Assembly: GCA_963664115.2 (NCBI GenBank)
Contig: CAXWPJ010000006.1
Span: 32,001 to 96,000 of the forward strand
Direction: 5' to 3'
DNA from: Terriglobia bacterium
Lineage (GTDB): Bacteria > Acidobacteriota > Terriglobia > 20CM-2-55-15
DNA: 64,000 nt
A program made the translations under genes and the position numbers. The notes below the pieces were generated by a model, which worked only from the letters and a program-made list of their open reading frames with translations, was not told where the DNA came from and did no database searches. Below are positions 1,469 through 54,179 of this stretch, piece by piece (positions within the stretch are counted from its first letter, which is position 1; each line of letters begins with the position of its first letter).

Positions 1469-1707
1469 CTCCGCTCACCTCCAAAGCACCACTGACTCTA
1501 CGCAGTACGGGGAACGAGCGCAAGGCGAAGTGGCAAACGAAGGACTGACGGGTCCAATTGCGTTCCAGGCAAGCGAAAATAAACGCATCGAATCTCACTG
1601 TCCGCCATCGTCGTTTATAAGGAATTGACCTTCTGATTGCCAACAAACCCCACCTCTAGTATCGTTTGCCGAGTTTTTCACGGTTCGTTTCGACGCACAC
1701 TAAAACG

Positions 1708-1779
1708 ATGGAATCAGGCACACAACTCGGCCACTACGAGATCCTGTCTGCCCTCGGTAAGGGTGGAATGGGAGAAGTG
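1708..1779 (+). pseudogene. 5' stub of a Ser/Thr protein kinase
   Basis: MESGTQLGHYEILSALGKGGMGEV is a kinase subdomain I Gly-rich loop; homology stops immediately after it. Confidence 0.8.
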
Positions 1780-3629
1780 GGCGACGCGAACGGATTTCCC
1801 GGTGCTCTACGCCCTATAAAGCGAGCTTATAGCAAGCGACGGAATCGCCACACGCTCGCCCGAATCTTCCCTAATCTTCATTGCGAAAGTGCTCTTATTT
1901 TGCCTATTATCTGGAACCCCTTCCATGTTCGCACAAGGCGACATTGGGGGTTTGGACATACGGAGTTCTGATGCAGAGACGCGCTTTACTCAAGACCGGT
2001 GGCCTTGCCGTGCTTGGCCTCAGTGTCGGCGGACCGGGGGGCCGCGCCTCGCGGCTGGTGCGCTTGCCGAGGCCCTATACCAACCTCATGCCGTTCATAG
2101 CACAAACGGCGAGCAGTGCCCTCGAAGGGGAGTGGGTGGGCGGCTTTCAGATTGGGGAAATCTCAGGCTATCTCCGTTTCGACGTTGTTGCTGAAGGAGA
2201 GCAACTTCAAATCGTCCTCGCCGCCGTAAACCCGGCGAGCCCGCAAGGCTCGGCCCTACGCGATCTGAACCACGACGAATCCGTGGTCCGCTTCGTTCTC
2301 ACGCTCGGCACCGAAGTATTCCCCTTTGAGGGACAGCTCCAGGGCGATTCTTTGGTCGGGATGGTCCGCTCGGGCGTTCAAGAAGGCTCTTTCGATCTTA
2401 CGCGGACCCGGTCTCAAGCCCAATACGATCCCGCCTTCTTCGGCCGCTATGAAGGAGCCTACGAGATTGCCCCGAACCAGCTTATCTTCGTGCGCAGGAA
2501 CGATTATCTGAGCCCTCAGGCGCCCTATGGATTCGACCGCACCCGGCTCTTCTATATGGACGAGTCTGGCAACAGTCGCTTCCTCTACCCTTCCTCCGAC
2601 AACACATTCTTCGCCGGCCCGACCACCTTCGTCCCCACCCCGATCGAACGGACCCTCGAATTCGTCAGCAACGCAGAAGCCGAAGTGATCGGCATACGCT
2701 GGCGCGACCGAGGCGAGCCGGAACGCTTTGTCCCCAGGGCCACCGTGTACCGCGACGAGGAAGTCCGCTTCCGAAATGGTGACGTTGACTTGGCCGGCCG
2801 CTTGACAGTTCCCGAAGGCAGAGGTCCCCACCCCGCCATCGTACTCGTCCATGGCTGGGGTAACCGTACTCGAAACGCCGATTACTTAATCGTGGCCGAC
2901 GTCTTCGCTCGCCACGGGATCGCTGCGCTGGTCTACGACAAGCGCGGGACGGGGGGATCGGAAGGTGACTGGCAGCAAACATCCATCTCCGACCACGCAG
3001 ACGACGCGCTCGCTGCCGTCCAGCTGCTCCAAGGTCGTAGCGACATCGACCCCGGCCAGGTTGGCATCTTTACCACGAGCTTCGGTGGCCTGGTGACCCC
3101 GCTTGCCGCTTCCCGCTCCAAGGATGTTGCTTTCCTCATTCTCACGGCTTCCCCGGCGATCTCGCAGGCGGAGCGAACTCCATACATCATGTTACCCATC
3201 CTGCGTGGCCTGCAATTCTCGGAAAACGAAATCGAGGAGGCAGTCGCCTTCATGAAACTCGAAGCCGAGTTCCTTATGACCCGCAACAATTGGTCCGTGC
3301 TCCGCGAAGCCATCGAGCGAGCGCGTGGGACGAGATGGTTTCCCGAAACTCAGATTGGAACCGCAGGTGCAACGACCGAGGATCATCCGTTCTGGGAGAG
3401 CGCGCAGGGCGATTCTACCTACGATCCTCGCCCGGCACTCCGGCAGCTCACTCGCCCCGTGCTCGCCATCTTCGGCGAGTTAGACGAGGCGGTAACCGTT
3501 GATCCCAATCGCTCAGTGCTCGAACAGATGTTACGTGAGGGCGAACACCCTGACTTTACGATCCGGGTCCTCCCGAACACTGGTCACGGGATGGGTTTCC
3601 AGGAGGGCAGCAGAGCCGCCCGTTCTAGG

Positions 3630-5476
3630 CCCAAAACAAGCGCATAACCAGTCCGCCGAGGCCCAGTTCGCGCCGATAGAATTCGAGGCATAGAATCCCG
3701 TTCCCGGATGGCCTGTTCCAGGTATCGAGTTTCTGTTGAATCTGTTTCAGTTCAGCCTCGCTGGTGTTGGACGGTTGACAGAAACCGGGACCTCGATCGC
3801 CCGGGCTCAGAGTCATGATCGGGTCAACATCGCAGAGGCTGACGCAACACATCCACCCCGCGGAACAAGACCGGCAACCACCGGTTCCAGGCCAGGATCC
3901 GGAACAGAATGCGCCGCCCGGTGCGCACGAGTTGGCACGGCACAAGCATGAAAGCGTTCAAGAAGGTTTTGAACTCCATGCGCAGCACGGTTTGCTTCTC
4001 AGCCTGATATTTTTGGCCCCAACGTCCGGTTTCGGGAAGCAGCAATGCAAACCACGCTTTCAGTGTCCAGGCCAGTGACGCGATCACCATGTAGGCCCAG
4101 TTGCTGGTCTGATCTCCGACCGGCATCCGCAACGCCTGAACGCCGTTCTTCAACTGCTCAATGAGATTCTCCTGATTGCACCGTTGATTGGCACGCATCA
4201 CAATCTGGTCGGCCGGATCCGAACGGTTGGTAATGTAGAAGAAGTACCGGATGTCGTCAAACAACACCTGCTCTCCTTTGGCCACCGACAGATTCTTCCG
4301 CACCACGACGACACGGTAGTCCCGATCGCAGGCTCCGGGTCGATACCGAAACTCGGCCACATCCTCACCCTGCAAGCGGATATTGTCGAAACCGCGCTGC
4401 CGAACGATCTCTTCCTTCACGTTGTCGGGACGTTGGCGCGGTTCGGTCGCCACGTCGTATTTCGCGGGCCGTTCCAGGCGCTTCCACTGGCGCGGCTCCA
4501 GTTCATCGGCCCGGGCCTTCAGGTTCGCCATCGCGTCAATCCCGAATATGAAACCCACCTGCTGGTCGTCCCATCCGTCCAGATGCCGGGTCTGGCTGAA
4601 GTCCGTGTCCCCGCGCAGCAGGATCTGGCGAAACCCCGCATGCCGGCACAATGCGATGGCTTGGTCGAACCGGACCGCGGCTCCTTCATGCGACGGCCGG
4701 TTGCCGCTACGATTGACCAGATACAGCGGTTCGGCGGTGTTGGCCAGCGAGATCATCAGCGGGTGATATCCCCACGTCCCGTCGTAGGCCACGTCCATCC
4801 CTTGCTTGCATTCCCCCGTGGTTTCGGCCAGTGTCCCGTCCGCGTCCAACACCGCTTCTTCGAAAAACGCCGCCGGTTGCTGTCGCCAGACTCCGAGCCG
4901 GACTTGATTGGTTGCCTCCATCAGACACTCCACGTCGTCGGCCTCGAATCTCCGGCAGAAGTCTCCCGCCGTCGTCGGATCCGGAATCCGTTGCGCTCCC
5001 AGCGCATCCAGATACACCGCATCGTTGCGCCGCAGTTCGATGTCTTCCAGGCACGTTCCTCCGCTCAAGGCGTTGTAGGCGATGTTCAGCACGTGATCCG
5101 ACTCGTGATACGGCAGGTGCCGCTTCAACACATGCACGCCCTTGTCGATGGCTTCGATCAGCCCGGTCCGCCGCGCCACCAGTTGCATCGTCCCGATACC
5201 ACCAACCGATGTGCCCCGCGTCCGCTCTCCCATCTCGTACTGAATGTTGCTCGCCGAAAACATCGGCTCTACCTGATCCGTCCAATGCCGGTCCCCAAGC
5301 CGACGTTCGATTCGCCGCTTGCGGTTCCTCATGTTCTTGCGCGTATAATCGTTCATCTGAAATGCCTCCTTTTCCGAAGAATCTGTTCAAGGTTTTTTTC
5401 GCACGGAGAGGGGGCATTTCGGGTACTTCCGCTCTTATTGCACTATCATTTCCTCGTCAATCACCCTTGTTCAGGG
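3630..5476 (-). mobile_element. IS1380-family insertion sequence, copy 1 (1847 bp)
   Basis: Terminal IRs CCCAAAACAAG / CCCTGAACAAG; 6-bp TSD TCTAGG at 3624-3629 and 5477-5482; essentially identical to 52269..54115. Confidence 0.92.
3824..5356 (-). CDS. IS1380-family DDE transposase
   Basis: 510 aa; motifs LDADGT, YHPL, LLRGDTDF, RCNQENLIEQLK. Confidence 0.9.
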   Translation of the reverse strand: MNDYTRKNMRNRKRRIERRLGDRHWTDQVEPMFSASNIQYEMGERTRGTSVGGIGTMQLVARRTGLIEAIDKGVHVLKRHLPYHESDHVLNIAYNALSGGTCLEDIELRRNDAVYLDALGAQRIPDPTTAGDFCRRFEADDVECLMEATNQVRLGVWRQQPAAFFEEAVLDADGTLAETTGECKQGMDVAYDGTWGYHPLMISLANTAEPLYLVNRSGNRPSHEGAAVRFDQAIALCRHAGFRQILLRGDTDFSQTRHLDGWDDQQVGFIFGIDAMANLKARADELEPRQWKRLERPAKYDVATEPRQRPDNVKEEIVRQRGFDNIRLQGEDVAEFRYRPGACDRDYRVVVVRKNLSVAKGEQVLFDDIRYFFYITNRSDPADQIVMRANQRCNQENLIEQLKNGVQALRMPVGDQTSNWAYMVIASLAWTLKAWFALLLPETGRWGQKYQAEKQTVLRMEFKTFLNAFMLVPCQLVRTGRRILFRILAWNRWLPVLFRGVDVLRQPLRC

Positions 5477-5603
5477 TCTAGGTACGCTCCGGACTATTTG
5501 GACACGATGATCTCTTGGCTGCTCGAGCGCGTGGAAGTCAACCGGTGATTGGAGCTCCCCTCTCGTTGATTCCACCGCCAGCGCCGCTGCTGCTTTACGC
5601 TCC

Positions 5604-5659
5604 CAAATCAACATCGACCCTGGTTTGAGGAACTGAAGGAACGGGTGCCGGTTCCCTGA
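5604..5659 (+). pseudogene. 3' stub of Ser/Thr kinase (QINI..WFEELKERVPVP*)
   Basis: Same terminal motif as 951..1053; ends 12 bp before repeat site 1. Confidence 0.7.
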
Positions 5660-5671
5660 TTTTCAAGGTCA

Positions 5672-5699
5672 AGTCCTGATAAATCATCTTGTCGGAAGT
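5672..5699 (+). repeat. 11-6-11 recombination-like site 1
   Basis: AGTCCTGATAA-ATCATC-TTGTCGGAAGT. Confidence 0.85.
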
Positions 5700-5730
5700 T
5701 GAGAAAAAAGAAGGGAAAATTTCTTATCGA

Positions 5731-5753
5731 GTCCCAGATAATCGTAGTTAGGC
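5731..5753 (+). other. attI-like simple site with integron core GTTAGGC
   Basis: GTCCCAGATAA-TCGTA-GTTAGGC; the GTTRRRY core lies 3 bp before the GNAT ATG. Confidence 0.5.
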
Positions 5754-6179
5754 CAGATGAACTGCGAAACGATCAGACGAGCGTACAACTCTGATTCCGC
5801 ACGGATAATTTCGCTCATAGCCGACGTCTATCGAGAGTACGGCGACGAGATCTATCTAGAAGGAGCGGACAAGGATCTAGTTGATATTGAAGGATATTAC
5901 CGACAGGTAAGCGGGGATTTTGTCATATTGGAAAGGAATGACGAAATCGCAGGAACGCACGCCGTACTCCCGCTTGACCTAGCGAATCGCGTCATAACCT
6001 TCAGACGGCTGTACCTTCGGCAGGAGTTGCGTGGGTCGGGTTGCGGAAAGCGGTTGATGAAATGGGCAATCGATTGGTCGATGCGCGAAGGCTATCACTC
6101 AGTAGAGTTTTGGTCTGACATGCGATTCCAACGGGCACACAGGTTCTTTCAGCAATTAGGTTTCACGAAAGGGGATACT

Positions 6180-7564
6180 GAGTTATTGTCAAAAGTGGTG
6201 TTTAGGAGATTGATTCAAGCGGCGGCCTGATCGACTTGTGTCGCTTCGACACCATCGTTGAATTTCACTCCGATGATTACCTTGCTCAGATCATCGAATC
6301 CTCGTAATCGTCGCCAATTGTTCTCAGCGCACTGGCCCAGTTTGAACATCATGTGCAGCATGCCATCCCGTGTCAGGCAACCTCTGGATCGCTTCGTTCG
6401 GTGTCGAATGGTGGCAAAGGTCGACTCAATGGGATTCGTCGTTCTGATGCTCTGCCAGTGCTTGGCCGGAAAGTCGTAAAAGGCCAGCAGTTCCTCTCTG
6501 TCTTTCTGCAGGCAGAGTGTGGCTTTCGGATACTTCGGTTCATAGGTTTCAATGAACAAGTCGAATGCCTTCTCGGCGTCTGCCTTCGTCTCGGCCTGCC
6601 AGATCGAGTGCAGGGCCTGTTTCGCCTTCGCCTGGACCGACTTGGGCAGGCAGTTGAGGACGTTCATGACTTTGTGCATCCAGCAACGTTGTTGACGTGT
6701 CTCGGGATAGATTTCCTCCAGTGCGGCCCAGAACCCCATCGCACCGTCACCGATGGCCAACTTCGGAACATTCATCCCACGGGACTTCAGCTTCAACAAG
6801 ACCTCGCGCCAACTCTGTGTCGATTCCCGTACACCGTCTTCGATCGCCAGGAAACGCTTCTCTCCGCGTTCATTCACGCCGATCACGACCAATGCACACA
6901 ACTTGGTTTGTTCCGCCCGAAGTCCGCTGTAGATGCCGTCGGCCCAGACATAGACCCAGCGATCTGCATCCAAACGCTCCTCGCATCCGAGGCGGTACTG
7001 TTCGCCCCAAACCTGTTTCAACCGCGATACCGTGCTCGCCGACAGACCCTGCGCCTGGGGACCGACAAGAACTTTTAGGGCCTCACCCATCTCGCCGCTG
7101 GAAACGCCTTTCAAATACAACCACGGCACCGCTGCTTCCAGCGACTTCGTCTTCCGAATGTACGGTGGTACCAGGGCCGATCGGAACGTCACAGCTTCGC
7201 CCGTCTTGGCACGGACCTTCGGGATTTGGACTGTTACCGGACCCAATCCCGTCTGCAGTTCGCGTTCCGGCAGATAACCGTTGCGTACCACCCCGGCGTT
7301 TCCTGTCTCAGTTCGCCGGCCACCGTGCTGGGATAGCAGCTCTGCCAATTCGGCTTCCACTGCGCGTTGGATCAGTTGCTGTGCCCCAACTCGTAGTAGT
7401 TCTGTTACTGGATCCTCAATCGTTTCTCGACCTTCCGGTCCATTCACGTTACTCTTGCTCACAGTGGCGTATCTCCTATGGTTGCTTTGAAGTTTTGTCA
7501 CAACAAATCAACCAGATACGCCGCTCTTATTCAATCCCTCAAACACCAGATTCGGTTATAACTC
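6180..7564 (-). mobile_element. IS256-family insertion sequence, intact
   Basis: IRs GAGTTATtgtCaAAagTGGTGTTT / GAGTTATaacCgAAtcTGGTGTTT; 9-bp TSD GGGGATACT at 6171-6179 and 7565-7573. Confidence 0.92.
6215..7501 (-). CDS. IS256-family (mutator) transposase
   Basis: Motifs RNGYLPER, YVWADG, IGDGAMGFW, QRCWMH, IRTTNPIES. Confidence 0.92.
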   Translation of the reverse strand: MTKLQSNHRRYATVSKSNVNGPEGRETIEDPVTELLRVGAQQLIQRAVEAELAELLSQHGGRRTETGNAGVVRNGYLPERELQTGLGPVTVQIPKVRAKTGEAVTFRSALVPPYIRKTKSLEAAVPWLYLKGVSSGEMGEALKVLVGPQAQGLSASTVSRLKQVWGEQYRLGCEERLDADRWVYVWADGIYSGLRAEQTKLCALVVIGVNERGEKRFLAIEDGVRESTQSWREVLLKLKSRGMNVPKLAIGDGAMGFWAALEEIYPETRQQRCWMHKVMNVLNCLPKSVQAKAKQALHSIWQAETKADAEKAFDLFIETYEPKYPKATLCLQKDREELLAFYDFPAKHWQSIRTTNPIESTFATIRHRTKRSRGCLTRDGMLHMMFKLGQCAENNWRRLRGFDDLSKVIIGVKFNDGVEATQVDQAAA

Positions 7565-7648
7565 GGGGATACTCGGAATATGACAGATGGAGCCATGCCC
7601 TACTCAGAGTATCGATTCTCAATGAACTTGTTTGGGCAAAATAATATT

Positions 7649-7750
7649 GCCTAACACGGGATGCAGTGGACGGCCTTCCGCTGGCGCTCCAGGCTCCACG
7701 GGTGGTCGAGGTCCACGTTTGGGGCCTAACAAGCCGCTGCAGCTGGCGGG
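7649..7750 (+). other. two partial attC-like left halves
   Basis: GCCTAAC-acggg-ATGCAG overlapping the GNAT stop codon (7649) and GCCTAAC-aagccg-CTGCAG (7724); no matching downstream GTTRRRY seen. Confidence 0.5.
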
Positions 7751-7779
7751 GCCGGCAAAAGAGGTGAAAATGATTCTCA

Positions 7780-7807
7780 AGTCCTGAGAAATCATCTTGT
7801 CGGACGT
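7780..7807 (+). repeat. 11-6-11 recombination-like site 2
   Basis: (TTCTCA)AGTCCTGAGAA-ATCATC-TTGTCGGACGT(TGAGAA). Confidence 0.85.
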
Positions 7808-7841
7808 TGAGAATTGCGCGATCCCCCAAAACCGTGTGCTT

Positions 7842-8063
7842 ATGCAGTTTTCCCGATTTCCAAAATCGACTGAGAAGCGATGGTACTTGAGTGTGCTTTG
7901 TGCGAAATGCCACTCGCCGATTTTGTTCGGTCTGGATCGAACCGAAGGACGCGGTCCGTTCGAGCCGCTGGCACAGCTGTTTCTCACCTGCAGCGAATCT
8001 GAATGCGGGCATCGCTCTGATTACAGTGCGGCGAAGGTATCTCCATACCAGAAGAATCCGTAA
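7842..8063 (+). CDS. small Cys-rich, zinc-ribbon-like hypothetical protein
   Basis: CAKC...CSESECGH; the only plausible ORF between sites 2 and 3; start uncertain. Confidence 0.5.
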   Translation: MQFSRFPKSTEKRWYLSVLCAKCHSPILFGLDRTEGRGPFEPLAQLFLTCSESECGHRSDYSAAKVSPYQKNP

Positions 8064-8117
8064 TCTTCGAGGTGAGCGTTGGAGCTGCGAACGTGAACGT
8101 ATAAAACAGCCTGACGT

Positions 8118-8156
8118 TGGTTTGAAGAACTAAAAGAACGGGTGCCGATTCTCTGA
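8118..8156 (+). pseudogene. 3' stub of Ser/Thr kinase (WFEELKERVPIL*)
   Basis: Same motif as the other stubs; ends 12 bp before site 3. Confidence 0.7.
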
Positions 8157-8168
8157 TTTTCGCGGTAA

Positions 8169-8196
8169 AGTCCTGATAAATCATCTTCTCGGACAT
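8169..8196 (+). repeat. 11-6-11 recombination-like site 3
   Basis: AGTCCTGATAA-ATCATC-TTCTCGGACAT. Confidence 0.85.
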
Positions 8197-8333
8197 TGAC
8201 CTTCGCGAAGAGCTGTTAAAGGCGCTCGGACTTTTCGTTTGCTGCTTCAACGGGTTCTCAGGACCCTCACGCTTCTCGCTCAACCTCCCCGGACAGTGTC
8301 CACAACATCCTCAGATTTGAAGTGCCCGCACGG

Positions 8334-8585
8334 CCACACCAACCGACCCGACAACGGGAGCGACAGATGCGACGGTTCAAGTCGCCACGGCAGGCGCAAC
8401 TCTTCCTCTCAGTTCACGGTGTCGTTCTGAATCTTTTCCCGTTGGGAAGGCACAGACTAAAAGCGGTTCACCACCAGATGCTTCGGGCCCGTTCCTTTGC
8501 GACTTGGAATGCGGTCTCGGTAGGCTGATCGAGCGGCGCCGATCTGGCACAGGTTCGACCTTTGGACCCGTAAGTTGACAGTACC
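8334..8585 (+). mobile_element. IS6-family remnant (transposase C-terminus plus right IR)
   Basis: HQPTRQRERQMRRFKSPRQAQLFLSVH, followed by AAGTTGACAGTACC (reverse complement GGTACTGTCAACTT). Confidence 0.75.
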
Positions 8586-8783
8586 TGGATGACCGTGCCT
8601 GATGCGATCGAGGCAATTTGGGTTGAGAACGGGCCATGGTCATGGGACTGATCTCGGCAAGGTCGGGACGAGGCTGATACACTTCGGACGGGACTCGATG
8701 GCCGTGCTAGGATCAACCTGTCAATGCCGGTCGCGGTTCTGCGGAGTGCCGTGTAGCAAGGAGTAGCAGGAGGGAGGGACGTC

Positions 8784-9830
8784 ATGCAGAAAATTCTAGG
8801 TTTCGTTGTCTTGTTGGCGATGCCCGTGGTTGTTGTTGGCGTATTGAGCGCCCAGAGCGAGCAATCGGCTAACGGCCAAGCATTGGTGCAGACTGAGCGA
8901 CCTGATTGGGCCTATGGCATCCCATTGGGGCCGCGTCCTCCCCGTCCGGAAGAGGATGGGACGGTCTTCAGCTTGCCCGATACTGACCGGACGTTCACGG
9001 CCACCCAGATTCGCGGTCGCTCTCCCGCCGACTGGTATCCCGACGACCATCCAACGCCGATGCCTGACATCGTTGCGAACGGTCGGACGGCAGAGGAGGG
9101 CGCTGTCGTGCGGGCGTGTGCGCTTTGTCACTACCCCAATGGGCAAGGGCGCCCGGAGAACGCTGGCGTCGCGGGCTTACCGGTTTCGTATTTCATCCAG
9201 CAGATGGACGATTTTCGCAACGATCTGAGGAATAGCTCAGAACCGAGAAAGAACAACGCTCGGACGATGACCCAAATCGCGAAGAACATGACCGAAGAGG
9301 AGATCGTTGCTGCTGCCGAGTACTTCGGCGCACAGCCTTGGAGGCCATGGGTCCGGGTCGTGGAGACCGACACCGTATTCGAGAGCTACACGCTGGGGGG
9401 CATTTATCTCCCAGTGGACTGTGAAATCGACATCTTCACGGAGTGCCAGGCTACTGCTGCTACGTCGGGCACTGAACCGATCGGGCTGCGTATCGTTGAA
9501 ACCCCGGAGAATATCGAGCACGCAGAGGTGCACCGTAATCCGAGGTCCGGCTGGATCGCTTATGTTCCGGTTGGTGCGGTCGAGAAGGGTAGGGCATTGG
9601 CCGAGGCCGGGCAGTGCAGTATCTGTCACGGTCCAGGTCTGAAGGGTCTCGGCCCCTTGCCTGGAATCGCGGGTCGGTCTGCCAGTTACCTCATGCGGGC
9701 GTTGTATGACATGCAGCAGGGCACGCGTAAGGGACTGTGGTCTGAGCTGATGACGCCGGTCGTTGCCGATCTCAGTACGGAAGACTTGCTGTACCTTGTT
9801 GCTTACGCGGCGTCCCTTGACCCGCAATAG
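8784..9830 (+). CDS. diheme c-type cytochrome (c4/c553-like)
   Basis: Signal peptide; CALCH and CSICH heme motifs; GGAGGG RBS. Confidence 0.88.
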   Translation: MQKILGFVVLLAMPVVVVGVLSAQSEQSANGQALVQTERPDWAYGIPLGPRPPRPEEDGTVFSLPDTDRTFTATQIRGRSPADWYPDDHPTPMPDIVANGRTAEEGAVVRACALCHYPNGQGRPENAGVAGLPVSYFIQQMDDFRNDLRNSSEPRKNNARTMTQIAKNMTEEEIVAAAEYFGAQPWRPWVRVVETDTVFESYTLGGIYLPVDCEIDIFTECQATAATSGTEPIGLRIVETPENIEHAEVHRNPRSGWIAYVPVGAVEKGRALAEAGQCSICHGPGLKGLGPLPGIAGRSASYLMRALYDMQQGTRKGLWSELMTPVVADLSTEDLLYLVAYAASLDPQ

Positions 9831-10227
9831 CTTCTGCTGGCATTGGCAAGTTGATCGATCGAGGATACTTTTTCACCAGAGTGCACATGTGCTTCCTGTC
9901 AGTCAGCAGACAGACGTCATCGCCACCCACTGGGCTGCGAAGCAGACGATGGTGAGCTGATCGAAGGTGTGGTCCGGCGTATGGGCTGACCGTTCATGCC
10001 CTTGCCCGCACGATGGCGTTGTACTCGTCGGTTGCCACCCGCAACGCCTCGTTGTCGGTGATGGGCGTCAGCGTGCCGTTGAACTCGGCGTACAGCCGGA
10101 ACGTGTTCAGCACGACCCGCCCCGCGTCCAGCCAGTTGGTGAACTTGCCCATGTTGAGCGGATAAGCGGAACAAGCGGGGTCTGACAACTATCAGAGCGC
10201 TGACGGTGTCGTAGATTTGCTTGGTCA

Positions 10228-10255
10228 AGTCCTGAGAAATCATCTTCTCGGACGT
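10228..10255 (+). repeat. 11-6-11 recombination-like site 4
   Basis: AGTCCTGAGAA-ATCATC-TTCTCGGACGT. Confidence 0.85.
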
Positions 10256-10587
10256 TGAACTTTTACAACCTAGGCCGGCATCAACCGAGCCTGCCGAGTC
10301 ATCCCCCAAAATCAACAACTTGGAACCGAGGCGGTGGGCGGAGTCGCTGTTGAGTTGCGTGAGGCGTGCTAAGATTTCTCCGAGGTGTGGCCAGTGGAAA
10401 GCATGCGTAAAGCCATAGTCGTTGTTTTGGGTTGCAGCTCTGCTCCTAAGTGCGTTCACAAGCCTCGATGTGGATTCTCTGTATGCCGTTCTAGCCCTCA
10501 CGTTCTGGCTGTACCTCACTGCCGTCACTCTCCGCTATAAACAAACCGAAGTCGAGGCGGCCAGTAAATGCTAGTAAGGAGAAGCGA

Positions 10588-11679
10588 ATGCGTAGCAGTA
10601 CGACAAGCGTGATTCTGGCGGTTTTGGTCGCAGCGCTGGTGCTCGCGTCAGGGGGCTTTGGCCAGACGCCTGAGTTGAGGCGTTCGTCGCCCACCGAGGC
10701 AACGCGATGGACGATTGAGCACATCGCCGGCGGCGTCTACAGGGCTATGAGCAACAACCACGGCACCGTCTTCCTGGTCACGCCGGAAGGCATCGTCTTG
10801 GCGGATCCGATCAACATTGAATTCTCGATGTGGCTGAAGGAGGAGTTCGCCGCTCGGTTCGGGGTCCCGGTCAGATACGTCGTCTACAGCCACTACCACT
10901 GGGACCATGCCTCCGGCGGGGACGTCTTCGCGGATACGGCCCGGTTTGTGGGTCATGCCAACATGCTCTCGTACCTGGCGATGCCGCCAGCGTCTACCAC
11001 GCTCTCGCAAGTCGTTGGGCAGTACGAGCCCGTGGCGGCGCTGGATACCAACGGCAACGGAGTGGTTGAGGAAAGTGAGACACCTGCGGACCTCCAGCGC
11101 TTCGCCGGCTCGAGCCAGAGCCAGTTCGAAGGATTCGACGCGAACGAGGACGGCGTGCTCAGCGGCGCGGAGGTTGTGCGCGGACCAATTAGCTTTGTGC
11201 GTCCTCCTGATATCACCTATACAGACGAGTTTCAGATCAACTTGGGCGGAAAACGGGTGAACCTGACCTGGGTTGGCGAGATGAATCACTCGAAGGACTC
11301 GAGCATGATCACCTTTCCAGACGACAGCGTGATGTTGATCGTCGACTATGTCTCGTTCGGGCGGCTTCCGAACAGGGAGATGGACTACGAACTCGGGATG
11401 TTCGAAGAGTGGATGGCTGCTATCAGTCAAACGGAGGAGCTAGCGGCAGACTTTGAGTTCGTTGCGACAGGCCACGGGCCGGTGGGCACCCGGGAAGACG
11501 TCAGAGCGTGGCGAGAGTACTTCGAAACACTCCGAGACGAGGTTGCCGCCGGCATCGCTTCGGGCCAGACACTGGAGGACATGCAACGAGACATCAAGAT
11601 GGAAGAGTACAGTCACTGGGGGGACTTCGATTGGGTCGACGAGAACGTCCTCGGCATGTATCACTTCCTGACCGATTGA
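10588..11679 (+). CDS. exported MBL-fold metallo-hydrolase with EF-hand-like insertion
   Basis: SHYHWDH motif, later H, D and GHG ligands; loops DTNGNGVVEESE and DANEDGVLSGAE; AAGGAG RBS. Confidence 0.85.
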   Translation: MRSSTTSVILAVLVAALVLASGGFGQTPELRRSSPTEATRWTIEHIAGGVYRAMSNNHGTVFLVTPEGIVLADPINIEFSMWLKEEFAARFGVPVRYVVYSHYHWDHASGGDVFADTARFVGHANMLSYLAMPPASTTLSQVVGQYEPVAALDTNGNGVVEESETPADLQRFAGSSQSQFEGFDANEDGVLSGAEVVRGPISFVRPPDITYTDEFQINLGGKRVNLTWVGEMNHSKDSSMITFPDDSVMLIVDYVSFGRLPNREMDYELGMFEEWMAAISQTEELAADFEFVATGHGPVGTREDVRAWREYFETLRDEVAAGIASGQTLEDMQRDIKMEEYSHWGDFDWVDENVLGMYHFLTD

Positions 11680-11769
11680 TGCTTCGGATATTCTCTAGCC
11701 TTCGGACACGCTACTGCCGGTGCCGTGAAGCGGCGTTCTATCCCCTCAAAAGCCTGAAATCTGTTTTCA

Positions 11770-11797
11770 AGTCCTGATAAATCATCTTCTCGGACCT
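11770..11797 (+). repeat. 11-6-11 recombination-like site 5
   Basis: AGTCCTGATAA-ATCATC-TTCTCGGACCT. Confidence 0.85.
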
Positions 11798-11859
11798 TGA
11801 GAATTCTACAGGGGGTTAAGTGGCCCTCCTCACGAAGCCGTGACCTCAGCCCACCTCCA

Positions 11860-12903
11860 TCATTGATCCGTTTGACAATCGTAGATCGGAATCGAATCTC
11901 CAAGAGCCAGCCAATAACCCTCGATGGTTGCGGGTTCGGTGAAGGTTTGCGGGTCAGTTACTGTTATTTGGAAATCCAGGCGGCTCTGATCGTTGCTCAC
12001 GGTAAACCGTTCCACGATTTCGACTGCCTCGCTTTGTGGCGTACCGATGGTGTCGAAGAAGGGCCAGTTGATTCGACTGGTTCTAACGACCAGGGTTCCC
12101 TCTTGCCATTCTCCTACCGAGTAACCCAGCCTTGAAGCGGGTTCGTTGGGAGGGGGCTCGGATCGATTCAGATGGATCGTCCGCTCAATGTCGTAAAACT
12201 CGGTCCTCAGCGTAATCTGATCCCGATGATCGATGAACTCGAAAGGATGCGGATTGGTCATGATTCTCGGCATGCCTTCCGGTTCGCAACGGATCGCGAA
12301 ATTGTCGAACATGTCCCATGACTCCCTTGCAGCAATCGCGGATTCCTGAAAGGGCAGGTGGGTAACTACTCGACGAGCACGTCCACGTGGAACACTCCAG
12401 ACGCGAAAAATTCCCTCACCGTCGCCGTTCAGCCCACGTTCAGCCAACAAATCTCGACCGCCAAGTATCTCTTCCGACCATCGAGGCTGGGTTGGCCAGA
12501 GCAATACCTCACGCCCATCTGTAAACAAAATGTTGGTGGCGAGAAAGTCCAGCTCGTCGCGACTCGATCTCCTACCGGCCACCCTCACACGCTCGCCTAT
12601 TGTGAACAAGTCTTGGGTTATACCTTGGCGCTGCAAGTTATAAATAGAATTTCCATGCATGATCCGAATCTCTTCCTCACCGTTGGTATTCATCGTTTTT
12701 ACAGCGATTCTAATGTGTGGGTTTCTCCACTCTAAAGCCAGGAGTTCGCCTACCGCTTCAGTGATTTCGTCGACGTAACCAGCAACGGAATGGTGAGCGG
12801 ACACGACGACGGGCCAACTAAAGAAGACACCAGCCATCGCAAGGCCACCAAAGAGGAGCCTCCTTCTAACCCGTTTCCGTCGTGTCGCAATTCGGTCCAG
12901 CAT
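11860..12903 (-). CDS. exported DUF6152-like protein (AHHS N-terminus) with C-terminal domain
   Basis: SA-HHSVAGY, WRNPH, then a CEPEGMP...GYSVGEW...ERFT domain; start uncertain (ORF extends to 12960). Confidence 0.7.
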   Translation of the reverse strand: MLDRIATRRKRVRRRLLFGGLAMAGVFFSWPVVVSAHHSVAGYVDEITEAVGELLALEWRNPHIRIAVKTMNTNGEEEIRIMHGNSIYNLQRQGITQDLFTIGERVRVAGRRSSRDELDFLATNILFTDGREVLLWPTQPRWSEEILGGRDLLAERGLNGDGEGIFRVWSVPRGRARRVVTHLPFQESAIAARESWDMFDNFAIRCEPEGMPRIMTNPHPFEFIDHRDQITLRTEFYDIERTIHLNRSEPPPNEPASRLGYSVGEWQEGTLVVRTSRINWPFFDTIGTPQSEAVEIVERFTVSNDQSRLDFQITVTDPQTFTEPATIEGYWLALGDSIPIYDCQTDQ

Positions 12904-13058
12904 GTCTTTCCCTCCGATTCCCTTGAGGTAGGTCACATGAAAACGAAGAATGTACTGCATGTCAATCTTTGTCTACGTCAACGCTGCATGGGCTCGTGAA
13001 TCATGCCATCCCAACAGAGTCGGATGGCAGACCTGTCCATCTCCGAAATCCATTCTCA

Positions 13059-13086
13059 AGTCCTGTTAAATCATCTTGTCGGACGT
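13059..13086 (+). repeat. 11-6-11 recombination-like site 6
   Basis: AGTCCTGTTAA-ATCATC-TTGTCGGACGT. Confidence 0.85.
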
Positions 13087-13275
13087 TGAGAATTGGCATT
13101 TGCGGAATGTTCCGTTGCTATCGAGTTCTAGATCACTGTAGTTATGCCCCGCAGCGTATATCCGGCAATGTTGAAGGTCGCATTCGAACCAAAACGGATA
13201 GTCGAACTGAGGAGGTAGGCTCGTCAGAGCGCCCAGAGTGCACGCTCTACGAAAACTGAAAGAACACTGTGGCGA

Positions 13276-14835
13276 CTATTCCTGCATTACCCTCTCGTGC
13301 AACATTTCGACCGTCCTCCAGGCAGCTTGGATGGCGCCTTCGAGCCACGCCGGACGCGAACTGGCGCCCGCACATCCCATATAGATCCGACCATCGGCCT
13401 TGCTGAGTTGTTCCAGATGCGCTCCACGCGGGGTGCTGTGGTAGGCGCCCAGGCTGTACGGAACTTTTTCCCACCAAACACAGTATGCGCTCTCGAATTC
13501 TTCGCGCATCTGAGGATGCACCTTGCCCGCATAGGTAAGCACGTGATCAATTCGGGCCTCGAGAGGCATGTCCGCCAGATCCGCCATCTCGCCATTACCG
13601 TAAAAGCCGAGGAGAACGCCCTTTTGGGTAAAAAAGTCGTTCGAAGGGTAGGAAAACTCTCCGAGCTGGAGACTCCGTGTCCAAAGGTGCCCACCGAAGA
13701 TCCCCTCGTCCTCTTCCCAGAAGCGCCGCCTCATCTGCAATCCCATCTTGGCGCTCGTACTGTGACGGCTGTCATTCACGGCCTGGGTCATCTCGGCCGA
13801 CAGGTTCGCGTCGATTCCTTTCATGACGGCCATCGGCAGGCAGCAGACGCAGTAATCGGCGGTCTCCTCCCGCTCGGTGCCGGTTCTCGTCTCTCGGTAG
13901 ACTACTCGAACGCCATCGCCTGTCTGGCGAATCGTCTTCACTTCGGCTTCCAGTGTGATCCGGTCGCCGAGAGCACGCTGGAACGCCAGAGGGATCTCCA
14001 TCATGCCGCCCACGGGCTGAAATAGCGGGTCGGGTCCCCCGGTTCCGGCTTCGAGCGATCGGACGCGACTTCCAAACCCCGACTGGAGCAGCGCGCCGAG
14101 ATCGTAGGGATCCTGAGAGCCGCGGGAGTTGGGCGGCTGGTACACGTGATCTTCGGAATCCAGGTATCCCGCCCGGACCAGAAATTCAACCAGCAGATTC
14201 TTGTCTCCTTCCGTGAGCGGGAGGTCAATCGCACCCTGTTCCATCGCCTTCGTGAGCAACTCGGTCGTGGAGCCCCACAGGTCGGCCTTGACCTCCCGCA
14301 GGCGGACCCGCCTGCCCGACAGCGGTCCCCGTTCGGGGTCTTCTTCGTAAAAGTAGTTTGCATCGCTCGAGTTGACGAACAGTTCCAGTGGAACGCCGAG
14401 CTCCTTGCAGTAGCCCAAGATCCCCTTGTCGGCATTCGGAATGCGCCACGCGCCTGCGTTGAAGTACTGCCCCTCGTCGAATCGACAGACCTGCCGCTCC
14501 CCGCCGACTTCGGTGTGCCCCGATCCACGGCGGAGCGTCCACATGAGGCCGCCGACCCGATCACGGGCTTCGAGGATCCTGTAGTCGTATCCCAGCTTCC
14601 CCAGCTCGTAACCAACCGTCAGACCAGACAACCCCGCACCCAGGACAACAACCCGTGTCCCGGGCGGCCTCCCCTGCAAAAGCGGCCGAGGGCCGGAAGG
14701 AGCGCCCATCAGACCCCATGTATTCATGGTGCCCACGACCAGGGAGGAACCACCCACGGCGCCAAACCGCTCGAGAAGCTGACGCCGGGTCATCACTGAA
14801 GGATTCGTCCGTTTATCGTGTGGTTGATGGCTCAT
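13276..14835 (-). CDS. Tat-exported flavin monoamine / L-amino-acid oxidase family protein
   Basis: TRRQLL leader; VVVLGAGLSG, LEARDRVGG, WLEGAIQA. Confidence 0.88.
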   Translation of the reverse strand: MSHQPHDKRTNPSVMTRRQLLERFGAVGGSSLVVGTMNTWGLMGAPSGPRPLLQGRPPGTRVVVLGAGLSGLTVGYELGKLGYDYRILEARDRVGGLMWTLRRGSGHTEVGGERQVCRFDEGQYFNAGAWRIPNADKGILGYCKELGVPLELFVNSSDANYFYEEDPERGPLSGRRVRLREVKADLWGSTTELLTKAMEQGAIDLPLTEGDKNLLVEFLVRAGYLDSEDHVYQPPNSRGSQDPYDLGALLQSGFGSRVRSLEAGTGGPDPLFQPVGGMMEIPLAFQRALGDRITLEAEVKTIRQTGDGVRVVYRETRTGTEREETADYCVCCLPMAVMKGIDANLSAEMTQAVNDSRHSTSAKMGLQMRRRFWEEDEGIFGGHLWTRSLQLGEFSYPSNDFFTQKGVLLGFYGNGEMADLADMPLEARIDHVLTYAGKVHPQMREEFESAYCVWWEKVPYSLGAYHSTPRGAHLEQLSKADGRIYMGCAGASSRPAWLEGAIQAAWRTVEMLHERVMQE

Positions 14836-14885
14836 GAGACTTAGTCCTCATTGGGATCCTGAAACGGAGCCGGCGGGCCCGACCT

Positions 14886-15884
14886 CTACGCGATTACCTG
14901 CTGATAGGCATCTACAATCTCACTCCCGGTTGGAAACCAGACACCATCGTGCTGCTGAAAGTGCGCAATCGCTCTTTCCAGGTAAGGCGTGCGACGAGGC
15001 TGTCCCGTCAGGAACGGATGGAGCGGAATCCCCATGACGCGGGCCGTTTTCTGGCTGTCGGCGTAAAGACTGTCAAACTGGTCCGTGAGTGCCTGAAAGT
15101 ATTGTTCCCCGGTATAGTTGTGGCGGAGGAGGAGCGACATGTCGTTGATTTCCATGCCGTAGGGAACAGCGAAGAGCTGGCCGGTATTCACCCTCATGGC
15201 GATTGGCTGATCGTCGATGTTCCAATCGCCGACGTAGACGACTCCTTCTTCAGCGAGAAGATCGGGGGTATTGAAAGTTTCCACGAGCCCCGGCCCTAGC
15301 CAGCCGCGCGGCCGCTTCCCGGTCGCCTGCTCGATGGTCCGCAGCGTTGTCCGGATCACTTCCCGTTCTTGCTCCAGGGGAAGGTTCGCCAGGTTCGAGC
15401 TATTCGTGATTCCGTGGCCCATGAACTCCCAGCCTCGGTTCTGCATCTCTTGAACCGCTGTGGGAAACACCTCGCAGACCATGGAATTCAACGCCACCGT
15501 TGCCCGGATTCCTGCCGCATCGAGCACATCCGCAATTCTCCACAGCCCTACCCGGATTCCATAATCTCGCCACGCATAGTTGATAACGTCGGGTACCCGG
15601 TTATTAGTATTGGGAGATATCGCCGCACCGGCCGGTGAGTCGAACTGCCACACTTCAACGTTGGGAATAATCCACACCGCGAGTGTCTTACCTCCCGGCC
15701 ACGTAAAAGGTCTACGCTCAAAAATGAACGAATCCTCATAGCGGTCTGCTCTTCGCATGATGGGGCTTCGTTGTTGCGCACTCGCGCCAAGTGGCCCTTG
15801 GAATCGAGAGGCGGCCAGCACGCCGGCCGCACCGGCCAGCGCCGACCCGACAAAGCAACGACGGTTCACACCCTTGGATTTCAT
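14886..15884 (-). CDS. Tat-exported polysaccharide deacetylase / PuuE-like protein
   Basis: NRRCF leader; WRDYGIRVG, EFMGHG, GWLGPG, PLHPFLTGQP. Confidence 0.85.
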   Translation of the reverse strand: MKSKGVNRRCFVGSALAGAAGVLAASRFQGPLGASAQQRSPIMRRADRYEDSFIFERRPFTWPGGKTLAVWIIPNVEVWQFDSPAGAAISPNTNNRVPDVINYAWRDYGIRVGLWRIADVLDAAGIRATVALNSMVCEVFPTAVQEMQNRGWEFMGHGITNSSNLANLPLEQEREVIRTTLRTIEQATGKRPRGWLGPGLVETFNTPDLLAEEGVVYVGDWNIDDQPIAMRVNTGQLFAVPYGMEINDMSLLLRHNYTGEQYFQALTDQFDSLYADSQKTARVMGIPLHPFLTGQPRRTPYLERAIAHFQQHDGVWFPTGSEIVDAYQQVIA

Positions 15885-16349
15885 TCTACGTCCCTCCATT
15901 CTCTTCCGCGCCGCCCTGAAGCAAAACTAAGCTTGCCGTTTATTCAAAGACGGCGGGACAGTGTCCTTTCGAGCCCCTCGAACGACGCTCGGACGAAGCT
16001 CCGGCTTTTCCGCGTCGGGCAAAGCTCAGAGGAAAATCTGCCATTTCAAACACATTCGCACCGTGATGCCTTCGTGTCGCTACCACATCTGGAGGGCATT
16101 CTACTGCCTTCCATCCCCATTGCGGGAGCGAAAGCGACGTACACGCAACACCCGCTTCAGAGGAACGATCTTCGCTATGGACGGAGACAGCCCCGCCTCC
16201 CTTACTGAGAAACACTTGAAGAGCCGTCTGCCTGACGACACAGTATCCAAGTATTATCAGGAGCACCTTGTGCTGTTGAACTGAAGGAACGCTTGCCGGC
16301 GCCGCAAAGCCGCGTTCTATGGCCTCAACATCCTTGAAATCCATTCTCA

Positions 16350-16377
16350 AGTCCTGAGAAATCATCTTCTCGGACGT
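16350..16377 (+). repeat. 11-6-11 recombination-like site 7
   Basis: (TTCTCA)AGTCCTGAGAA-ATCATC-TTCTCGGACGT(TGAGAA); preceded by an ELKERLPAP kinase-like stub at 16278-16304. Confidence 0.85.
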
Positions 16378-16390
16378 TGAGAAATCTAGA

Positions 16391-16537: not shown

Positions 16538-17088
16538 TTCCTAACCCCTGCATAGTCAATACCTTCTAATTGACGTGTTCGCGCCCCACCGCGGGATGCG
16601 AACAAGTTTCGATCGATCCACAGGGCTGTTGCACGAAGGCCCCAAAGGAAGCAGACTCGGTTCAGGCGGGGTGGCAAGTTTTCGGTAAGCCGTTATAGGG
16701 CCATCGGAACTCTTCCGAGTTGCTAGACAGCACCTTATGGTCGTTTGGAGCAGCCGTGTAAATCCACGGATTGGCGCTGTACCACGCAAGCGGCCTCGAC
16801 AGCGAGTCCAAGGAAGCGCTTTACTAAACACAAGGCGACTAGGGAGGAGTAATCGGGTGTTCTGCTTCGTGCCCCTCGACATAACACCCATACCGCGACA
16901 CTGTCCGCGCTCCGATCGTCTTCAGACCCTTCTTATTCCGCTTATCCGCCGTATTTTTTTGATTCGTTTATGATAAGGATCTTTCCCTTGCATTCGATAA
17001 ATGCCTTTGATGCAACAAAAAGTTCTTTTACCATGCACCTGTTGGAACTGGTGTGATTCTTAAAGGTTTTGTGCACAAATATTAAATA

Positions 17089-17856: not shown

Positions 17857-19245
17857 GAGTTATAACCGAATCTGGGTTTAGGGATTGAATAAGAGCGGCG
17901 TATCTGCGTTGATTTGTTCGACAAAACTTCAAAGCAACCCTAGGAGATACGCCACTGTGAGCAAGAGTAACGTGACGTTCATGGACCGGAAGGTCGAGAA
18001 ACGTTGTTGAGTGATCCAGTAACAGAACTACTACGAGTTGGCGGCACAGCAACTGACCCCAACGCACGCAGTGGAAGCCGAATTGGCCACTTCGGAACTG
18101 CTATCCCAGACACAGGCCGGCGAACTAAGACAGGAAACGCCGGGGTGGTATTCCCGCAACGGTTATCTGCCGGAACGCGAACTGCAGACGGGATTGGGTC
18201 CGGTAACAGTCCAAATCCCGAACTTGGTCCGTGCCAAGACGGGCGAAGCTGTGACGTTCCGATCGGCCCTGGTACCACCGTACATTCGGAAGACGAAGTC
18301 GCTGGAAGCAGCGGTGCCGTGGTTCGTATTTGAAAGGCTGTTTCCAGCGGCGAGATGGGTGAGGCCCTAAAAGTTCTTGTCGGTCCTGGGGCGCAGGGTC
18401 TGTCGGCGAGCACGGTATCGCGGTTGAAACAGGTTTGGGGCGAACAGTACCGCCTCGGATGCGAGGAGCGTTTCCGGATGCAGATCGCTGGGTCTACCGC
18501 CTGGGCCGACGGCATCTACAGCGGACTTCGGGCGGAACAAACCAAGTTCGGTGCATTGGTCGTGATCGGCGTGAATGAACGCGGAGAGAAGCGTTTCCTG
18601 GCGATCGAAGACGGTGTACGGGAATCGACCACAGAGTTGGCCGAGGTCTTGTTGAAGCTGAAGTCCCGTGTGGGATACGAATGTTCCGAATTTGGCATCG
18701 GTGACGGTTGCGATGGGGTTCTGGGCCGCACTGGAGGAAATCTGTTACTGGACCGTCAACAACGTTGCTGGACCTTCCGGCACAAACGTCATGAACGTCC
18801 TCAAGTGGCCTGCCCAAGTTGTCCAGGCGAAGCCGAAACAGGCCCTGCACTCGATGGCAGGCCGAGACGATTCAGACGCCGAGCCCAAGGCACCAGATTG
18901 TTCATTGAAACCTATGAACCGAAGTATCCGAAAGCCGCACTCTGCCTGCAGAAAGACAGAAGGAACTGCTGGCCTTTTATGACTTTCCGGCCAAGTGTTC
19001 AGGTGACCAGAGCATTCAGAACGACGAATCCCATTGAGTCGACCGTTTGCCACCATTAACAGTGAACGAAGCGATCCAGAGGTTGCCGGACACGCTTTGG
19101 CATGCTGCACTGGATGTTCAAACACCAGTGCGCTGAGAACAATTGGCGACGATTCGGGATTCGAGCTGAGCAAGGTAATCATCGGAGTGAAATTCAACGA
19201 TGGTGTCGAAGCGACACAGTCGCAGGCCGCATCGGTCAATCTCCT
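17857..19245 (+). pseudogene. indel-riddled second copy of the IS256 element
   Basis: Starts GAGTTATAACCGAATCTGG and is collinear with the reverse complement of 6180..7564, but has many frameshifts and lacks the right IR. Confidence 0.85.
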
Positions 19246-51895: not shown

Positions 51896-52267
51896 GTGGC
51901 TGACCCAAAGGACGCCCGGGATAATTTCAAGGATGTCGCGATCGAGGATGGTACGTTCAAGGACACGCGCACCTTGGTCCGATTTTCCGGGGACAAGATG
52001 CAGAAAGTACCTCTTTTCGGATCCGAGAGGTACTTCTGTGACCTGTATTGCCTGCAACCGGGACAGCACCAGCGAATTCACAGCCACTCCGAATCTGACA
52101 AAATCTACTATGTGATTGAGGGGCGGGGGATGCTCCACATCGCGGGAGAAGAACGCGAGTGTACTGCCGGGGATGCTATCATCGCGCGACCGGGGGAAGA
52201 GCACGGCGTGAAAAATGAGAGTGAAATCAATCTGGTATTGCTTGTCTTCATGACTCCACGGCCCTAG
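51896..52267 (+). CDS. cupin-domain protein
   Basis: HSH...IYYVIEG.G and PGEEHGV.N motifs. Confidence 0.85.
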   Translation: MADPKDARDNFKDVAIEDGTFKDTRTLVRFSGDKMQKVPLFGSERYFCDLYCLQPGQHQRIHSHSESDKIYYVIEGRGMLHIAGEERECTAGDAIIARPGEEHGVKNESEINLVLLVFMTPRP

Positions 52268-52268
52268 C

Positions 52269-54115: not shown

Positions 54116-54179
54116 ACTAGCATGGATTTCCGAATAGGATGAAGTCCCGCTCCGGAGTACCGGCATCCGGCGGGGAGGT

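Follow-up and report, generated by a model that had tools for sequence, protein, structure and literature searches.

Does a set of short, nearly identical intergenic sites mark the joints of exchangeable gene cassettes in a bacterium of the class Terriglobia and, if so, what kind of system moves the cassettes? The DNA that raises this question, hereafter the window, is a stretch of 64,000 nucleotides (nt), C6:32001-96000 of a 4.9-Mb genome assembled in 12 contigs (genome G000, contigs C1 to C12). A first-pass annotation of the window had described an array of seven direct repeats separated by unrelated genes and had proposed that they are sites for a Xer/dif-type recombinase acting in trans. 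The comparisons reported below point to recombination sites at which a trans-acting enzyme may excise and insert gene modules, a reading that we adopt tentatively and to which we give a little less than even weight.

Searching the window with the consensus of that annotation returns exactly seven matches (0-1 mismatch), all on the + strand and all between crude gene calls (Table 1); matches occur in none of 100 shuffled controls. The positions, the common orientation and the intergenic placement of the sites are thus confirmed, as is, by Pfam, the gene content ascribed to the intervals; the interval 7780-8169 has no Pfam match. All seven have an 11-6-11 geometry with AA and TT beside the spacer (AGTCCTGANAA-ATCATC-TTNTCGGACGT). 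Two parts of the description need amendment. The spacer had been called invariant, which it is in the window (seven of seven), but in a free-spacer search of G000 only 125 of 177 loose matches carry ATCATC (type A); in another 19 (type B) the same arms enclose ACGACA or ACGACC. Likewise, the 11-6-11 geometry stands, but the conserved unit is actually 40 nt long (TTCTCAA-GTCC-T-GANAA-ATCATC-TTNTC-GGAC-N-TTGAGAA) and forms an imperfect 17-6-17 palindrome, in which two bulges are conserved. As single-stranded DNA the site is predicted to fold at -11.3 kcal/mol (z = -4.5), with a bulged T on the 5' arm and one bulged base on the 3' arm. Among the 115 type-A sites used for distribution counts, the bulged T is kept in 107, and at the bulge on the 3' arm G (62 sites) and A (32) are commoner than C (20) and T (one). 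Most positions approach 2 bits; those called K, S and +25 vary freely in three species. K and S, which are opposed in the stem, show no covariation (Watson-Crick pairs: 48 found, 52 expected), and no Rfam family matches the site. The single sharp edge of the unit is the 3' one, about 3 nt past TTGAGAA, and some 70 nt upstream are conserved more weakly. In a test for miniature inverted-repeat transposable elements (MITEs) or transposon ends, only this 3' edge was sharp, and six collinear indels gave no empty/filled pair. A palindrome reaching into both flanks was rejected, the only four left-right mirror matches all being ends of insertion sequences (ISs).

A scan of the genome and its relatives, recommended in the first-pass annotation, brought to light a large family. 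The 24-nt core pattern matches 124 times in G000 and not once in the reversed control; at the loose free-spacer setting, the reversed genome gives 14 hits. Altogether, G000 holds about 125 type-A copies, seven more that are split by an IS110-family element, and about 20 type-B copies. Its congeners carry 89 (G002), 42 (G003), nine (G001) and no copies (G004); in other genera of the same family three genomes have one copy each, and the 16 genomes examined from other families of the class lack the site altogether. An exact-match scan of one genome per species, over 185,579 species, matched only three records, named 'MAG: Terriglobia bacterium' (MAG, metagenome-assembled genome), and a metagenome scan yielded eight short contigs. 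By these counts, the site family is genus-restricted within the Terriglobia. Public runs that hold window DNA are labelled sponge, seawater/marine and sediment metagenomes.

The sites are clustered along the genome. Type-A sites lie outside gene calls in 110 of 115 cases, and 101 of 115 have an A neighbour within 10 kb vs 43 expected, with a median spacing of 2650 nt. Neighbours within 10 kb have the same orientation in 74 cases and the opposite orientation in four, and the genes between them face both ways; a hand count in G002 gives 62 and two. The polarity switches from cluster to cluster, many times along two large G002 contigs. Replication direction was rejected as its cause, the link to GC skew being weak (29/23 and 19/44) and the orientation switches many.

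That the clusters are arrays of independently moving modules is suggested by comparisons between and within genomes. The window is collinear from 38 to 60 kb with G002:C1:1281588-1303147, and genes of its first 38 kb, the part with the array, have their G002 counterparts in scattered positions. Gene order across the sites, the conservation of which had been named in advance as an argument against cassettes, is therefore not maintained in this relative. Successive inter-site segments of one G002 array (L052) map to five different G000 places, and 35 of 200 ends of unique interspecies blocks fall within 60 nt of a site. Within G000, the right flank abutting the site is shared by 87 site pairs, 67 of which have no shared left flank abutting it. 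Both flanks are shared by 20 pairs: nine are near-identical (at least 99%) on both sides, including seven C6/C11 pairs, and in most of the others the sharing on the left is limited to a short gene-end remnant of 32-61 nt. Contig C11 repeats large parts of C6:1-46165 at 99.8-99.9%, rearranged at IS256 copies and at sites, an overlap that probably reflects two strains or haplotypes assembled together and not genuine duplication. Three inter-site segments are found a second time in full, bounded by a site on either side and set among unrelated neighbours. The first, window 11770-13059, carries a DUF6152 gene and is found again at C2:264305-265594 (99.76% over 1249 nt); the second, window 7780-8169, at C10:252481-252870, between other sites (98%); the third, C12:428013-429516, in G002 at L044:3652-5239 (96.5%), where the segment beside L044:5239 maps to C10:431394 (97%). 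The recurrence of whole modules, the pattern of flank sharing and the non-conserved order support the cassette reading and, together with co-orientation and clustering, uphold the earlier view of the sites as joints between relocating modules. The arrangement typical of integrons, in which co-oriented sites delimit mobile cassettes, is thus found here too. In public runs (Logan contigs), the contigs break at the repeat, and joints near sites have sides of 20-31 nt, indistinguishable from other site copies.

If an enzyme acts at the sites, a module would leave as a circle with one site and re-enter at another site, which would produce co-oriented arrays automatically. The exchange point had been placed at ATCATC; the cleanest cassette is bounded elsewhere. 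When the two copies of the DUF6152 cassette (1289 bp) are compared, differences in the upstream site fall at K, S and +25; identity begins at TTGAGAA, then runs through the downstream site to GTTGA, K excepted. These boundaries would fit a crossover at the hairpin's 3' foot, between N and TTGA, as in attC, and not at ATCATC; the exchange point would then be this foot (between N and TTGAGAA). Three breaks do sit at arm/spacer boundaries, where half-sites are joined to unrelated DNA; the G002 block homologous to the amine-oxidase interval starts exactly at the right arm, and another block ends exactly at the left-arm/spacer boundary. Candidate enzymes would be a tyrosine recombinase of the host or, from the resident IS91-like elements, the pairing of tyrosine recombinase and Y2 transposase.

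Several observations weigh against such a dedicated exchange, beginning with those on the enzyme. G000 has 27 hits to PF00589; a XerC/XerD-like pair is encoded at C2:150455-151351 and C9:863291-864193. The integron integrase IntI (TIGR02249; 440 bits, cut-off 265) is present only at C9:714590-715549, with classical attC-like sites (GCCTAAC...GTTAGGC) on the 3' side of its gene (C9:710486-713818) and the nearest A site on C9 about 195 kb away. It exceeds the cut-off in G001 and G002 as well, and not in G003 or G004. This integrase has its own classical attC, then, and was not found in G003 despite the 42 sites there; it is also absent from the window and from 395 kb of G002 DNA examined, mostly arrays, in which the one tyrosine recombinase is part of an IS91-like element. 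The proposed Xer/dif-type recombinase did not gain support. The arms of the candidate chromosomal dif, ACGTCGCATAATGAGTATTATGTCAAGT (ACGTCGCATAA-TGAGTA-TTATGTCAAGT; C2:108118-108145; single-copy in G000, G001, G002, G003, G006 and G007), differ from those of the sites: A sites lack TTATGT.AA.T, and by eye only their right arm matches the left arm of dif in part (6-7 of 9 bases). No Xer-type tyrosine recombinase is linked to the sites. A search for a recombinase gene co-occurring with a site, which had been suggested as a check, leads to a single case, P0001, a 316-aa Xer-like recombinase encoded between inverted B sites (C5:52066-53263) and the only recombinase flanked by sites. P0001 was rejected as the cognate enzyme, since it was not found in G002-G004 and is broken in G001; its occurrence is patchy (26 of 151 genomes of the class), and none of five homologous loci has such flanking repeats. 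A serine recombinase was rejected too, none of the three Resolvase hits in G000 standing beside a site. Then there are the breaks themselves. Between species they vary, falling at the left edge, in the spacer or at the right edge, so that the exchange point is inconsistent. K, S and +25 differ even between copies that are 99.8-99.9% identical, and because of this they are no guide to the crossover. The 98% block of the second cassette (389 nt) ends about 50 nt before the downstream site, ahead of a gene-end remnant at 8118-8162. No presence/absence of one cassette was found between G000 and G002, the five clean indels being IS or MITE-like insertions away from sites. Several C6/C11 breakpoints abut IS256 copies, in a genome rich in ISs. 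Finally, 40 bp of identity could allow RecA-dependent exchange with no dedicated enzyme.

This last possibility is at the heart of a serious rival, if to our mind a rather unlikely one: the site would be a selfish or structural extragenic palindrome comparable to the repetitive extragenic palindromes (REPs), and the modules would have been shuffled incidentally, by homologous recombination between 40-bp repeats and by the very heavy IS load: G000 has 77 IS4-like and 55 IS256-like hits of at least 1000 nt. The sites are indeed short, intergenic, imperfectly palindromic, high in copy number and confined to one lineage, and both the failure to find a cognate recombinase and the inconsistent exchange points are as this account would have them. 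A further argument comes from the IS110-family element mentioned above. It is 1.5 kb long (Pfam DEDD_Tnp_IS110 and Transposase_20), and each of the seven copies borders on an A half-site at ATCATC, always in the same orientation; six lie between both half-sites (AAATC, element, ATCTT), and the remaining one has the right half only. The spacer of the window site at 13059 (13070-13075) is the empty form of one of these insertions, being split by 1538 nt of IS110-family element at the corresponding place in the near-identical C11 (C11:1098-2635). The element is strictly site-specific and presumably bridge-RNA-guided. REPs are known IS110 targets (Tobes and Pareja 2006, PMC1525189; preprints on ISPpu9/10). 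They are, however, typically dispersed and arranged as head-to-head dimers, head-to-tail arrangements being rare (PMC3733652), whereas the sites here are single, clustered and co-oriented (74:4). The GTAG head is missing, the unit has one sharp edge only, and whole two-site modules recur at 96-99.8% identity. Nor is any gene for a REP-associated tyrosine transposase (RAYT) flanked by sites. A RAYT link was not supported: G000 has two weak PF01797 (Y1_Tnp) hits, at C10:490081 and C10:492691, and a lone variant site stands 300 nt upstream of the first, whose opposite side has none.

A second alternative, which we consider improbable, makes the hairpins origin or terminator signals for a rolling-circle enzyme of the HUH type, either the Y2 transposases of IS91-like elements or a Y1 enzyme. 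The stretch between two co-oriented hairpins would leave as a single-stranded copy that inserts at another hairpin, giving constant 3' and variable 5' ends. Three IS91-like types, with a tyrosine recombinase and a Y2 transposase (Y2_Tnp, a Pfam match for type 1 only), are in fact found at sites, either in the loops of B and A or 21-28 nt away; the insertions of types 2 and 3 lie within the loop region, next to (G/A)TT(T/A)|GAAC. The conserved bulged T would fit, such a base being also a feature of IS200/IS605 ends, as would the one sharp edge, the many 5'-truncated gene remnants upstream and the cleanest cassette, which spans hairpin foot to hairpin foot. Yet the number of IS91-like elements does not track that of the sites, G003 having 42 sites and no such integrase hit and G001 about 25 copies and nine sites. 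By eye, the IS ends have no clear likeness to the site, and the insertions can be read simply as ISs using a multi-copy target.

The origin of the sites is suggested by a gene family that ends at them. The 50-70 nt upstream of A sites are coding and end in NWFEELKERVPVP and a stop codon, 10-20 nt before the site; NWFEELKERVPVP followed by the stop is the C-terminus of a kinase/beta-propeller family of about 900 aa with an N-terminal Ser/Thr kinase. By motif, 49 of 115 A sites retain a recognisable gene-end stub. Type-B sites have the reverse orientation and precede the start codon of this family by about 85 nt; the piece formed by B, the leader and the kinase 5' end recurs more than 80 times in the genome. 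These 5' ends carry MESGTKLGHYEI..GKGGMGEVW, and many are truncated, as are many 3' ends of the family; such truncated ends lie, for example, at window 1666-1971 and, in L032 (C5:49001-56500), at 2705-2983 and from 4348. An intact gene of the family is flanked by inverted B and A sites; both gene ends are present in three gene calls only, and stubs are numerous. Convergent A/B pairs, 59-60 or 149 nt apart, mark the junctions of two such genes in about 12 places. In G007, from another genus, the only site stands behind a degenerate version of this gene end, which means that the link between site and gene is old. The congener G004, which has no A sites, has diverged palindromes with the spacer ATCCGG (G004:C19, locus L038, 2390-2420 and 3100-3140); they stand behind WFEELK gene ends, as A sites do elsewhere, so the hairpin evolves along with the flank of the gene. 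The site would thus descend from the 3' flank of a Ser/Thr-kinase/beta-propeller gene, with B kept upstream and A downstream. A separate repeat of about 78 nt follows truncated kinase fragments at C5:53529-53606 (L032 4529-4606) and in more than 25 other places, and is seen at window 16878-16950.

The same distances from stop and start codon, the remnants, the 5'-end fragments and the lone copy in another genus could also be taken to mean that B and A are 5' and 3' flanking signals of the family (operator, terminator or mRNA-stabilising stem) and the arrays graveyards of decayed tandem gene copies, but this is very unlikely, as it leaves the relocated two-site cassettes unexplained and fits neither a polarity independent of the direction of neighbouring genes, nor the missing T-run after the stem, nor an almost invariant loop that a stem-only signal does not need, nor the lack of K/S covariation and of an Rfam match.

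If the sites are recombination sites, how do they compare with known systems? The closest likeness is to sedentary chromosomal integrons and to clusters of attC lacking an integrase (CALINs). There, too, unrelated modules of one or two genes alternate with co-oriented hairpin sites, the end of an open reading frame lies immediately 5' of each site, and arrays occur without an integrase of their own; the 3' boundary is sharp, some 7-9 nt beyond the foot of the hairpin, and the clean cassette, running from one N/TTGA junction to the next, recalls cleavage between G and TTRRRY. The IS110-family element also has a counterpart in the IS1111-attC elements, which parasitise attC. The sites differ from attC in length (40 nt vs 55-140), in their boxes (TCTCAAG...NTTGAGA vs RYYYAAC...GTTRRRY) and in having one bulge per arm, where attC has two extrahelical bases on one arm; unlike in integrons, the genes face both ways and there are many arrays per genome. 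Membership of the attC class was rejected, the genome having a true IntI with classical attC elsewhere, unlike the sites here. The distinction from integrons drawn in the first-pass annotation is therefore sound, and so is the one from the pdif modules of Acinetobacter plasmids. The latter resemble our arrays in their short 11-6-11 sites (for XerC/XerD), in the shuffling of unrelated gene modules between replicons and in encoding no dedicated recombinase in the module; they differ in that the arms here are unlike the host dif, the sites are direct repeats rather than alternating C/D-D/C pairs, and they are chromosomal, in more than 100 copies. REPs and bacterial interspersed mosaic elements (BIMEs) with RAYT are likewise extragenic imperfect palindromes of 20-40 nt, high in copy number, lineage-specific and favoured by IS110-family elements. 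They form dispersed head-to-head dimers (PMC3733652), not islands of single co-oriented sites; the dRS3 repeats of Neisseria are mentioned in the same paper. The sites here have no GTAG or CGTC head and no RAYT gene flanked by sites. A further comparison is with the minimal mobile elements and the dRS3 and Neisseria intergenic mosaic element (NIME) repeats of Neisseria, where arrays of short palindromic repeats in variable regions serve as integration targets for IS110-like (Piv-type) recombinases. NIME units are, however, non-coding and 50-150 bp long, whereas the intervals here hold whole genes, and no link to a phage or a Piv-type integrase was seen. Searches of the literature, mostly at the level of abstracts, found no published description of such arrays.

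The features of the window array and the elements that use the sites are collected in Table 1. For two of the ISs in the window, public runs contain IS-free joints: 3623>5477, the empty site of the IS4-like element, and 6170>7565, the GNAT interval without the IS256-like element. Elsewhere in the window, a decayed IS256 copy lies at 17857-19245, and an IS4-like copy at 52264-54120 interrupts the syntenic part.

Table 1. Sites, cassette genes and insertion sequences (coordinates refer to the window unless a contig is given)
Feature	Position	Strand	Remarks
IS4-like element	3625..5481	-	transposase 3824-5356; just upstream of array
A site 1	5666..5705	+	28-nt core 5672-5699; gene-end remnant WFEELKERVPVP-stop ahead, ~5598-5660
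GNAT acetyltransferase cassette gene	5757..6230	+	Pfam; 3' end overlapped by IS256-like element
IS256-like element	6180..7564	-	Mutator-family transposase 6215-7501; inside GNAT interval, not part of system
A site 2	7774..7813	+	core 7780-7807
Small cassette	7814..8117	+	interval 7780-8169
A site 3	8163..8202	+	core 8169-8196; 52-nt remnant WFEELKERVPIL-stop ahead
Dihaem cytochrome c cassette gene	8784..9830	+	Pfam; 98% match in G004, different context
A site 4	10222..10261	+	core 10228-10255
Metallo-beta-lactamase-fold (MBL) cassette gene	10588..11679	+	Pfam; 96% match at G002:C2:2481891
A site 5	11764..11803	+	core 11770-11797; upstream boundary of relocated DUF6152 cassette
DUF6152 cassette gene	11860..12960	-	Pfam; whole cassette recurs at C2:264305-265594
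A site 6	13053..13092	+	core 13059-13086; downstream boundary of DUF6152 cassette
Flavin amine oxidase cassette gene	13276..14835	-	Pfam; G002 homologous block (94%) starts exactly at right arm of site
Polysaccharide deacetylase cassette gene	14886..15899	-	Pfam; G002 homologue on another contig, C1:1086249
A site 7	16344..16383	+	core 16350-16377; ELKERLPAP... remnant ahead; bulged hairpin, -11.3 kcal/mol as DNA
IS110-family copies	C11:1098-2635, C11:28977-30501, C12:342009-343533, C12:167628-169152, C10:417491-419015, C2:753744-755268, C9:939876-941387		
IS91-like type 1	C1:92900-95380		five further identical copies; 5/6 copies 21-28 nt from site
IS91-like type 2	C12:567600-570200; G002 L055:8990-11620		B loop, after TGTCGTT(T), in G000 and G002
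IS91-like type 3	C3:2880-5800		A loop, after GATGATT(T)

To our knowledge, the integron alone is well understood among systems that accumulate and rearrange single genes at short sites; pdif modules, which are bound to plasmids, are a second case. If an enzyme does act at the sites described here, they would constitute an integron-like gene-capture system built from different parts. In its fullest form, this would be a second gene-capture system in the Acidobacteriota, independent of the integron, with more than 100 bulged hairpin sites per genome derived from the 3' flank of a kinase gene, exchange at the hairpin foot, an enzyme other than IntI, and an RNA-guided IS110 element that parasitises it by recognising the loop; taken as a whole, we regard this construction as doubtful. 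The system lends itself to study: its 40-nt substrate is defined, occupied and empty variants occur naturally, the list of candidate enzymes is short, and the strict targeting by IS110-family and IS91-like elements is natural material for studying how ISs choose their targets. Should the cassette reading prove true, a chromosomal system with a different site, numerous arrays in each genome and no IntI at its arrays would mean that cassette capture evolved more than once, and part of the plasticity of these acidobacterial genomes would be explained.

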